From positions 2,051 to 66,050 of IMG/VR virus record IMGVR_UViG_3300020236_000037: DNA of 64,000 nucleotides, one strand, 5' to 3'. Positions 46,426 to 61,682 of the stretch are shown here, one piece after another. The notes beneath the pieces are model-generated. The model was not told where the DNA came from, searched no databases, and worked only from the letters and a program-made list of their open reading frames with translations. Every line of letters starts with the position of its first letter. The stretch's first letter is position 1. The stretch comes from a virus (taxonomy: Duplodnaviria; Caudoviricetes). A program made the position numbers and the translations under genes.

Positions 46426-46438
46426 GACGATGGGTGGT

Positions 46439-46517
46439 TGGTCAGTAGCTCAAACGGAAGAGCGCCGTCGGAATGTACATCCGGCGTAGGTTGCTGGTTC
46501 AAGTCCAGCCTGACCAG
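46439..46517 (+). tRNA. tRNA-like element with an elongated, non-canonical anticodon arm
   Basis: 7-bp acceptor stem TGGTCAG/CTGACCA; D arm GCTC/GAGC with GG; T arm GCTGG-TTCAAGT-CCAGC; 29 nt between D and T stems instead of about 23; no encoded CCA. Confidence 0.65.
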
Positions 46518-46763
46518 TTTGATAGTCGATAGAAAGGGGCCTATCCTGCAATCGGCACACCTTCAGTGCATTGCAGGGCAACACGCGATAGTTGCCTTGA
46601 GCAGGTAAGGTACGGACGTCCGGTTGATACTAGAACTGGTTGGCCATGGCCGCTTTTAATTTCAACAATACACCACTTAGCTTGTAGCCTAGTGGTGGCT
46701 GCCGGCCTGGGTTAATTCTGCCGATGACGCCTAGGCCGGCTCCTTCTCTAAATGGAGTTAAGC

Positions 46764-60326: not shown

Positions 60327-60419
60327 TCATGGATCAAGCAGAGGGCATACCTCGCGACTCGCAAGAGTATTTCGAGGGACATGCTGCATGCCACAATGAC
60401 GGTGAGAAAGGTTGCACGG

Positions 60420-60764
60420 ATGCGCATTGAGTTGCCATGGCCACCGAGTGTAAATAGATATTGGCGTCGACATGGACACACAATCTATTTGTCAAATGAA
60501 GGTCGTGCATATCGCAAGAATGTTGTAGCAATGCTCTACGACCAAGACTATGACATGATGATTGGACCTATCGACATGGTGGTTGAGTTGCATCCACCAA
60601 CTAAGCGGCTTTTCGATGTGGACAATTTTAACAAGGGTCCGCTCGATGCGCTCGCCTATGCCAAGGTGTACAGCGACGACTCGCAGATCGTGCATCTTGA
60701 TATTTGGAAACGCGAGAAGGTCAAAGGTGGTATGGCAGTCGTCACCGTTCAGGAGCTGACATGA
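60420..60764 (+). CDS. rusA: RusA-like Holliday junction resolvase
   Basis: LPWPPSVNRYW...DVDNFNKGPLDAL...DDSQI. Confidence 0.9.
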   Translation: MRIELPWPPSVNRYWRRHGHTIYLSNEGRAYRKNVVAMLYDQDYDMMIGPIDMVVELHPPTKRLFDVDNFNKGPLDALAYAKVYSDDSQIVHLDIWKREKVKGGMAVVTVQELT

Positions 60765-60987: not shown

Positions 60988-61248
60988 ATGAAACGAATCA
61001 TTGAAACATTTGGAGATTCAGGATTTGAAGCGATGCTTGGCGAGAAAGTGTGCATCTGTTGTGGAGTTTACATTTACACGGGCGTATTGTCTGGTGCGAA
61101 CGAAGATCACATCGAACTTGCTGAGCCGAAGCTAGTATACGAGACAGGGCCGTGGACAAGCGGCGAGTGGAAAGACGCTCAGGACCTACCGTCGCCATGG
61201 CGAGTAATGATCCATGGAATCGAAAGCTGGGGGCCAGCAAAATGCTAA
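60988..61248 (+). CDS. Sm/LSm-like small beta-barrel protein (tentative)
   Basis: MLGEKVCICCGVYIYTGVLSGANEDHIEL resembles the Sm1 motif; WRVMIHGIESW resembles Sm2. Confidence 0.55.
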   Translation: MKRIIETFGDSGFEAMLGEKVCICCGVYIYTGVLSGANEDHIELAEPKLVYETGPWTSGEWKDAQDLPSPWRVMIHGIESWGPAKC

Positions 61249-61682
61249 TGCCTTTAGGTAAGAGATCGCGTCCGCGTTCGTTGTCGGGACCTCGTTCATG
61301 GTCTGGCTCGATTTCGTGTTTATGTTCGCGTTCATGGTCTGGTTCGGTTTCGGTTTCGTGTTCGAGTTCATGTTCGCGTTCGCGTTCATGGTCGGGTTCG
61401 AGTTCGAGGTAACAAGTGTGCAAAGAAAGAGGAGGGCCAGCAAAATGCTAATGCCATCCAATAAAAGAAAGCGGTTGGGGTTGTGGATGTGGTCGGGATC
61501 GCGCTCGGGGCCGCGGTCATGGTCTCGCTCGTGGTCGCTGTCGTCGTCGGGGTCGGGGTTGTCGTCATGGTCGCTGTCTGGATCGCGGTCATTATCGGGG
61601 TTGGAAATGTGTACGTGGTCGCTGTCGGGATCGCATTCGTGGTCGCGCTCGGGGTAACAAGTGTGCAAAGAAAGAGGAGGGC
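61231..61682 (+). repeat. two framed units of 6-nt-periodic G(T/G)TC-NN repeats
   Basis: Identical 22-bp leaders (61231, 61434) and identical 30-bp trailers (61408, 61653); unit lengths 203 and 245 differ by 7x6; ORFs 61242..61412 and 61445..61657 read MLMP-basic-(Ser-X)n. Confidence 0.9.

Follow-up and report, generated by a model that had tools for sequence, protein, structure and literature searches.

Sm rings classically bind RNA, and eukaryotic SmD1, SmD3, SmB and LSm4 carry tails of Arg-Gly dipeptide repeats, SR/RS domains being likewise eukaryotic. The Sm/LSm tails are C-terminal fusions, free of Trp, and are methylated or phosphorylated. Small basic peptides are also known as Trp/Arg-rich cationic peptides (indolicidin, tritrpticin, synthetic (RW)n) and as Arg-rich dipeptide repeats such as poly-GR. 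In Borg elements, a canonical Sm protein, recognisable by its Sm1/Sm2 motifs, carries a tandem repeat as an N-terminal fusion (aaTR-Sm), the units of Borg aaTRs being 4-17 aa long (Schoelmerich et al. 2023, PMC9879509). A different kind of short-period repeat is found in VIPR, where the Vipr RAMP protein is accompanied by vrRNAs composed of 9-16 YNNGG pentamers, hypervariable at NN and furnished with a structured, invariable 3' tail; no Sm or hexamer variant is mentioned in the VIPR preprint (bioRxiv 10.64898/2026.04.26.720920).

The locus considered here lies in a tightly packed run of small plus-strand genes, just downstream of a gene for a RusA-type Holliday-junction resolvase (60381..60764), in a 64-kb stretch of phage DNA that was analysed as a whole (hereafter the window; Table 1). 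An Sm-like gene is followed by two leader-tract-trailer units, and the anatomy given for them in the first-pass annotation proved accurate: the leader GGGCCAGCAAAATGCTAATGCC and the 30-bp trailer occur exactly twice each in the window, with no copy of either expected by chance, and unit 2 (61434-61682, 249 nt) is longer than unit 1 (61231-61437, 207 nt) by 42 nt, which equals 7 hexamers. The first unit does begin within the end of the Sm-like gene, whose product ends in ...ESWGPAKC and whose TAA stop (61246-61248) falls inside leader copy 1. This copy comprises the last Sm-like codons, a G-rich Shine-Dalgarno-like run and then the stop/start overlap ATGCTAATG, which contains the TAA together with both candidate starts of ORF A (the alternative being at 61248), in the -1 frame relative to the Sm-like gene. 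ORF A ends within trailer copy 1, which supplies its final Gly codon and TAA stop and continues with AAGAGGAGGG, readable as the ribosome-binding site of ORF B. The description of the products as MLMP, basic residues and (Ser-X)n is correct for both ORFs, the repeat of ORF B being broken once, by LEMCT. Periods of 6, 12, 18 and 36 were found in both tracts with Tandem Repeats Finder, and no other Ser-X periodic tract is present on either strand of the window. A BLAST search of the 2-kb region against phage records gave no match, and no RNA run is among the sequencing runs listed for the locus; in the only run listed, the probable source from a hydrothermal vent metagenome, a single contig runs across the arrays, with no length variants among contigs.

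Table 1 Features of the Sm-like gene and Ser-X peptide locus (positions are those of the window)
Feature	Position	Strand	Description
64-kb window			Positions 2051-66050 of an IMG/VR virus record of 66,050 bp that is rated complete
Sm-like gene	60988..61248	+	86 aa, acidic, net charge -6, pI 4.7
Leader copy 1	61231..61252	+	Exact 22-nt repeat, overlaps the end of the Sm-like gene
ORF A	61242..61412	+	56 aa, MLMPLGKR leader then (Ser-X)n, net charge +9
Trailer copy 1	61408..61437	+	Exact 30-nt repeat
Leader copy 2	61434..61455	+	ORF B start inside; without an overlapped upstream gene
ORF B	61445..61657	+	70 aa, MLMPSNKRKR leader then (Ser-X)n, net charge +8
Trailer copy 2	61653..61682	+	ORF B stop and ribosome-binding site for the next gene (ATG 61688)

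The 86-aa upstream protein is confidently predicted to have an Sm fold, and the earlier Sm-like call thus stands. An AlphaFold2 model built on the family alignment (mean pLDDT 86.8) places a helix first and strands after it, giving the N-terminal helix and bent five-stranded beta-sheet small barrel of the Sm/LSm/Hfq fold. The top rows of a Foldseek search with this model are all Sm/LSm (TM up to 0.83, normalised by target), and VIA-align aligned 66/69 residues to an Lsm chain (Z 10.2, rmsd 2.0 A), its top 30 rows being Sm/LSm-fold proteins without exception. At the sequence level the Sm1/Sm2 signature of the superfamily was not detected, Pfam (E<=0.1) and PHROG offer no family for either the Sm-like protein or the peptides, and a 41-member profile of the Sm-like family retrieved nothing at E<=10 from PDB sequences; LSM, Gemin7 and Phage_Hfq clusters of the ESM Atlas (0.81-0.84) are weak leads. 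No relative was found when the single sequence was searched against viral_contigs. The family itself is large and very conserved: JGI metagenomes contain 526 of its loci, clusters at 63-76% identity number 198, and clustering at 50% leaves 445 representatives. Longer database entries carry their extra length always at the N-terminus, and all end in ...AKC. The family is acidic (median net charge -5, median pI 4.67), a property that, judged from sequence, neither proves nor excludes RNA binding.

Homologues were collected and inspected for linked 6-nt arrays, as had been suggested; the survey covered 80 loci from metagenomes, two from genomes and a few more, and 76 distinct peptide ORFs were gathered from these relatives. 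Among the 65 loci with at least 60 nt downstream of the Sm-like gene, 60 have a Ser-X tract no more than 400 nt from it, and in the remaining five the tracts are degenerate or upstream. Arrays also accompany remote Sm-like relatives of <50% identity (L137, L138, L139 and L140), and one array-bearing relative less than 50% identical to the family lies in a Chlamydiia MAG. Each locus has one Sm-like gene and from one to five peptide genes in tandem (e.g., four copies in L071 and L073, three in L093 and L106). The predicted peptides begin with a basic leader (MLMPxNKK, MLSRKV, MLTRK and others) and continue as (Ser-X)n; complete ORFs encode 26-88 aa (median 63), with a median net charge of +10 and a median pI of 12. 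Ser occupies every second position of the repeat body and accounts for ca. 40% of the peptides overall, and at X we found mostly Gly (36.7%), Arg (31.9%) and Trp (25.0%), these three residues together filling 94% of units. Genes for replication and recombination (such as RusA, helicases, DnaB, SNF2 and methylases) surround the module, and the only conserved partner of the arrays is the Sm-fold protein, with no other and no linked modifying enzyme.

Arrays break assemblies: of 82 contigs, 40 break off in the 350 nt downstream of the Sm-like stop, as against 8 whose beginning falls in the 350 nt upstream of the Sm-like start. A 16-mer leader pattern gave 50 matches in viral_contigs, only one of which is a true relative (L014), the rest being due to chance. 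The literature was searched for this module and no published description was found, so that the combination of an Sm-like protein and Ser-X peptides is apparently undescribed.

On what the tracts encode, the first-pass annotation offered two readings. It preferred a nucleotide-level constraint (constant GKTC, variable NN) and proposed unit RNAs loaded on an Sm ring; SR-like peptides were its fallback. Such RNAs would serve as guides or scaffolds, and the ORF would be incidental or a second use. Several features speak for RNA: the first base of the X codon (X1) is highly variable while the rest of the hexamer hardly changes within an array, a GG returns every 6 nt in each array regardless of the Ser codon, the partner has an RNA-binding fold, and VIPR provides a precedent for periodic repeat RNAs serving as guides, a VIPR-like pentamer locus being reportedly present in the same phage. 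However, the triplet that stays constant encodes Ser, in the frame of the start codon, in all 76 arrays. The dominant codon is TCG in 25 arrays, AGC in 23, TCT in 20, TCA in 5 and AGT in 3, i.e., 50/76 arrays use mainly TCG, TCT or TCA and 26/76 mainly AGC or AGT. Given that five constant triplets, all Ser and drawn from both codon families, are in use, a nucleotide motif is no explanation, and AGY-coded Ser-X arrays, which had been named in advance as evidence against RNA, are indeed among the homologues (e.g., within L002-L005).

The limits of the arrays are likewise those of genes. Their ATG or GTG starts always overlap or abut the Sm-like stop (in the forms TAATG, TGATG, GTGA and ATGCTGA), and in all but one of the 61 complete ORFs (60) the repeat comes to within 0-15 nt of the in-frame stop, without resumption beyond it; arrays bounded in this way do not look like unit RNAs. 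Indels between related arrays are mostly multiples of 6, and in L061 and L073 slips of 3 nt shift the Ser/X register and break the 6-nt period but keep the frame. At the Ser codon, minor bases make up 1.3% at position 1 and 1.5% at position 2 as against 3.0% at the synonymous position 3. We consider it very likely, from these coding signatures, that each tract forms the body of a tiny phage gene encoding a strongly basic Ser-X peptide, which makes the fallback the better of the two earlier readings; this degree of confidence applies to the coding module, and the mechanism is graded separately.

Direct searches for an RNA element point the same way. The arrays have no match in Rfam and no excess structure on folding (z-score +0.57), no promoter-like or terminator-like site was found between the units on the plus strand, and our own inspection of the sequences after the arrays revealed no trailer or tail conserved across loci, the trailers differing from one locus to another. 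The variable dinucleotides of the window were compared with the phage's own 64 kb in the manner of VIPR (skips 0-4) and matched no better than shuffled orders, so the NN strings yielded no targets there. The acidity of the Sm-like protein is a further point against RNA tracts. The defining features of VIPR, of which the tracts had been called a hexamer analogue, were each looked for and each failed to appear: the sole conserved partner has an Sm fold and is no Vipr (RAMP/RRM-fold) protein, the repeat is a 6-nt ORF bounded by start and stop rather than a series of non-coding YNNGG pentamers, and in place of a structured 3' tail the window has a trailer made of a stop and the next ribosome-binding site. 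Contradicted by the codon evidence, the RNA reading appears largely refuted, and we hold it to be extremely improbable.

The nucleotide-level idea has some substance at the X codon. X codons are NGG in 91.5% of cases (GGG 564, TGG 401, AGG 303, CGG 199) and synonymous alternatives are scarce (GGH 24, CGH 9, AGA 0); taken alone, this dominance could suggest a nucleotide-level GG constraint. X1 is the sole strongly variable base of the hexamer (53.8% minor bases, entropy 1.53 bits), the other five positions having 1-5% minor bases within arrays. The constraint noticed in the first reading is real in so far as third-base variants of X are as few as 3.0%, but at Ser the synonymous third base varies equally little (3.0%). 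Moreover, AGG and CGG are mixed in only 5 of 68 arrays, whereas 42.6 would be expected by random draw. As these two Arg codons are rarely mixed, an array appears to be built from three unit types (Trp, Gly and one Arg), and its variable base represents a three-residue alphabet and not a four-letter code, which again argues against RNA tracts. Trp would in addition anchor the third base of X, since it is encoded by TGG only, TGA being a stop and TGY Cys.

The uniformity of both third bases and the unmixed Arg codons fit recent duplication and deletion of units by slippage and do not fit a nucleotide code; we infer that the simplest account is a continuing gain and loss of copies of a few ancestral hexamers, point mutation being infrequent. 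Significant internal block repeats in the X1 strings (p<=0.05) were detected in only 9 of 57 arrays, and the slippage history is thus deduced from the indel sizes and the three-unit alphabet; the order of X looks largely unconstrained. X1 contributes 209 of 251 pairwise mismatches, but indels of whole units, once misaligned, also register as mismatches at X1, and we do not read the count as a sign of targeted mutation. Three other explanations were rejected. A diversity-generating retroelement acting on X1 is contradicted by the A of AGC and the A of TCA, which do not vary, and hypermutation at X1 by the near absence of AGG and CGG from the same array. A -1 frameshift at A_AAA_T, fusing the Sm-like protein to the peptide in the -1 frame, was considered, but the slippery run is not conserved (it is changed in relatives, e.g., to GCGAAATGC and GGCAAGTGA), each later tandem copy starts from an ATG and ribosome-binding site of its own, and the longer Sm-like database entries are extended at the N-terminus only.

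Such turnover raises the question of whether the peptides have any function, i.e., whether the tracts are selfish or neutral slippage-prone microsatellites hitch-hiking beside the Sm-like gene. The very fast change of length and order would agree with this, as would a premature stop within the array of a relative (L077) and the state of the window's own arrays. In the latter, Ser is encoded by TCG, TCA and TCT, X comprises R, W, G, C, S, L, V, I, P and H, a degeneracy greater than that of most relatives, both arrays have Leu, Val, Ile and His at X, and array A is, by our reading, mostly NGT-TCG, which gives Cys where relatives have Trp; the window's arrays could be decaying copies. Elsewhere, however, composition is near constant: Trp is present in all 57 long arrays, and the standard deviations across arrays of the R/K, G and hydrophobic fractions (0.115, 0.128 and 0.096) exceed only slightly the sampling errors of 0.095, 0.098 and 0.094. 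The roughly held composition is about one-third R/K, three-eighths G and one-quarter W or other hydrophobic residues. Linkage is also kept across relatives <50% identical with independent codon sets, the frame, the start coupling and the stop placement are maintained, and the non-synonymous positions of Ser are more conserved than the synonymous one. Functionless microsatellites are, for these reasons, very unlikely.

The peptide ORFs are often missed by gene callers, or the opposite strand is called, as happened in L003 and L004, and the window itself offers two minus-strand ORFs (60998..61423 and 61186..61668; 141 and 160 codons) with the same beginning (TTG start, HTCY), which might be taken for the real genes, encoding acidic Glu/Asp-X repeat proteins. 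The E/D-X pattern is not conserved (in our translation the AGC arrays give P-A, L-L or S-C), no ribosome-binding site was seen for these ORFs, they would overlap the conserved Sm-like gene in antisense, and the trailer, read in reverse complement, fully accounts for the start that they have in common. We attach a vanishingly small probability to them.

We propose that the Sm-like and Ser-X genes form a conserved two-part phage module, in which a gene for an acidic Sm-fold protein would be followed by at least one tiny peptide gene, the first of these being translationally coupled to it through the stop/start overlap. The peptides would be intrinsically disordered polycations, with a short basic leader and then Ser alternating mostly with Gly, Arg or Trp, and their hexanucleotide bodies would grow, shrink and reshuffle by unit slippage, which leaves length and order hypervariable and composition roughly constant. 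What the sequences themselves show is the coding signatures, the fold, the linkage of the genes and the opposite charges of the two partners (medians of -5 for the Sm-like protein and +10 for the peptides). Charge and aromatic contacts may attach the basic peptides to the acidic Sm-like oligomer, together with which they may act on nucleic acid, probably RNA, during the early or replication phase of infection, i.e., as a trans-supplied counterpart of the Arg-rich disordered tails of Sm/LSm proteins or of the disordered tandem-repeat extensions of Borg Sm proteins. This joint action is a tentative proposal, to which we give somewhat less than an even chance. It is possible that the putative Sm-like ring additionally interacts with the array mRNA. 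A true dual use, in which the peptides are translated and the periodic mRNA is also bound specifically by the ring as a programmable or autoregulatory RNA element, would make this mRNA a coding cousin of periodic-repeat guide RNAs such as the vrRNAs of VIPR, and is in our opinion exceedingly doubtful. Less far-fetched, yet still unlikely, is a ribonucleoprotein condensate that the phage would build inside bacterial cells from the acidic ring and the Ser-Arg/Gly/Trp peptides.

The same gene arrangement admits another interpretation, namely that the peptides are harmful effectors (directed at the host membrane, ribosome, nucleic acid or a competing phage) and the Sm-like oligomer is their co-translated neutraliser or chaperone, comparable to an antitoxin encoded ahead of its toxin or to nucleoplasmin with protamines. 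The gene for the acidic protein precedes that for the basic peptide, with overlapping stop and start, and the charges of the products are opposite; the likeness to type II toxin-antitoxin systems consists of this order, the overlap and the charges only. Further, the Trp and Arg composition resembles that of cationic membrane-active peptides, and one to five peptide genes accompany a single Sm-like gene. On the other side, the peptides have no signal or export sequence and no hydrophobic segment, half of the residues in their repeats are Ser and many are Gly, in contrast to known Trp/Arg antimicrobial peptides, and extra peptide copies without extra Sm-like copies would be odd for a stoichiometric neutraliser. 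We regard an effector and its neutraliser as an improbable account, though it is the main functional rival.

If the proposed Sm-peptide module is real, many uncultured phages carry an unannotated pair of genes (526 loci; 445 clusters at 50% identity) that joins an Sm-fold protein to basic peptides conserved in composition, free in sequence and generated by a six-base stutter. It would be a bacterial-virus case of the design "Sm core plus Arg-rich disordered tail" seen in eukaryotic snRNPs and in Borg elements, here with a tail that has its own gene and can quickly lengthen or shorten. There is a practical warning as well: genes of this type escape gene finders or are placed on the wrong strand, short-read assemblies break at them, and now that periodic guide RNAs of the VIPR type have been described they can be mistaken for non-coding repeat arrays. 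The value of the module lies in the clean hypothesis that it offers, concerning partner binding and activity on nucleic acid or membranes.

Phage-encoded tandem repeats of short period, in which GG is constant and other positions vary, are common to the module and VIPR, and in both they form tandem units between constant flanks, beside a small protein of a nucleic-acid-binding fold; the VIPR period is 5 nt, non-coding and has two freely variable bases, whereas here it is 6 nt, coding and has one position with three units. Like indolicidin, tritrpticin, (RW)n and poly-GR, the phage peptides are small, strongly cationic, Trp/Arg-rich and probably unstructured; they differ from these in their ca. 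40% Ser, their lack of an export signal, their greater length (median 63 aa) and their place in a phage replication-gene region, with an obligate Sm-like partner. Eukaryotic Sm/LSm proteins have in common with the module an Sm fold and disordered dipeptide repeats rich in Arg and in Gly or Ser, but the phage repeat is a separate, apparently translationally coupled peptide with ca. 25% Trp at X and no linked modifying enzyme, and the likeness is one of functional analogy, with membership not claimed. Borg aaTR-Sm comes close in several respects: both systems bring together a mobile element and an Sm-fold protein, and in both a fast-evolving perfect nucleotide repeat, held in frame by selection, would encode an intrinsically disordered low-complexity peptide. 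The phage module differs in its separate downstream ORF or ORFs, its dipeptide unit, its Sm-like protein without detectable Sm sequence motifs and its bacterial hosts. In the sense in which aaTRs were described (PMC9879509), the phage arrays show the same features, i.e., near-perfect 6-nt units in a maintained ORF that evolve fast and encode low-complexity peptide repeats.

Because a RusA-type Holliday-junction resolvase gene lies two genes 5' of the module formed by the acidic Sm-like gene and its Ser-X peptide genes, we place this module within a replication/recombination (i.e., "nin-like") gene block. The two small paralogues on its other side share the motif HDCYKSHHECA(I/V)AEVERLRK, and no convincing family was found for either of them in Pfam or PHROG. 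Elsewhere in the window, the tRNA-Tyr gene is directly 3' of a stretch that is a candidate Ubl-E2-JAB-E1 operon according to the first-pass annotation made from sequence only.

Genes flanking the module and the tRNA gene of the window
Feature	Position in window	Strand	Remarks
RusA-type Holliday-junction resolvase	60381-60764	+	Pfam E 1.8e-15; PHROG 34, E 2.5e-35
Small paralogous protein, 71 aa	61688-61903	+	just 3' of module
Small paralogous protein, 85 aa	62257-62514	+	just 3' of module
tRNA-Tyr (GTA)	46438-46518	+	sole tRNA gene of window

Short-read assemblies (the metagenome contigs L056-L135) tend to terminate within the 6-nt-periodic arrays that form the bodies of the peptide genes: of 82 contigs, 40 end no more than 350 nt past the Sm-like stop codon, and eight begin no more than 350 nt ahead of the Sm-like start. 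It is likely that arrays are both under-represented and mis-sized in databases. On one contig of 69 kb (L071, 3399-4324), no array directly follows the Sm-like gene; four peptide genes with differing leaders (MLPLNRK, MLINKK, MLITKK) are found 140-1000 nt 3' of it, and a CsrA-family gene is located ca. 1 kb upstream. In another relative (L077, 2416-2640), alone among 61 complete ORFs, the array resumes in frame past the stop codon (...GSGS* SRARSRSRSG...), which looks like a nonsense mutation within the array.

Among the more remote Sm-like proteins, some carry two Sm-like barrels per chain in a tandem two-domain architecture (P0122, P0127, P0240, and P0264) and others have long N-terminal extensions (P0138, 346 aa), and a C-terminal Ser-X tail is absent from all of them. 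Among species-representative genomes, the Sm-like gene occurs only in a Thermoguttaceae (Planctomycetota) and a Chlamydiia MAG (L136, L137). Given these two MAGs, together with a DUF1559 protein (a family known chiefly from planctomycetes) encoded in one flank, there are hints that phages with this module infect hosts of the PVC group.
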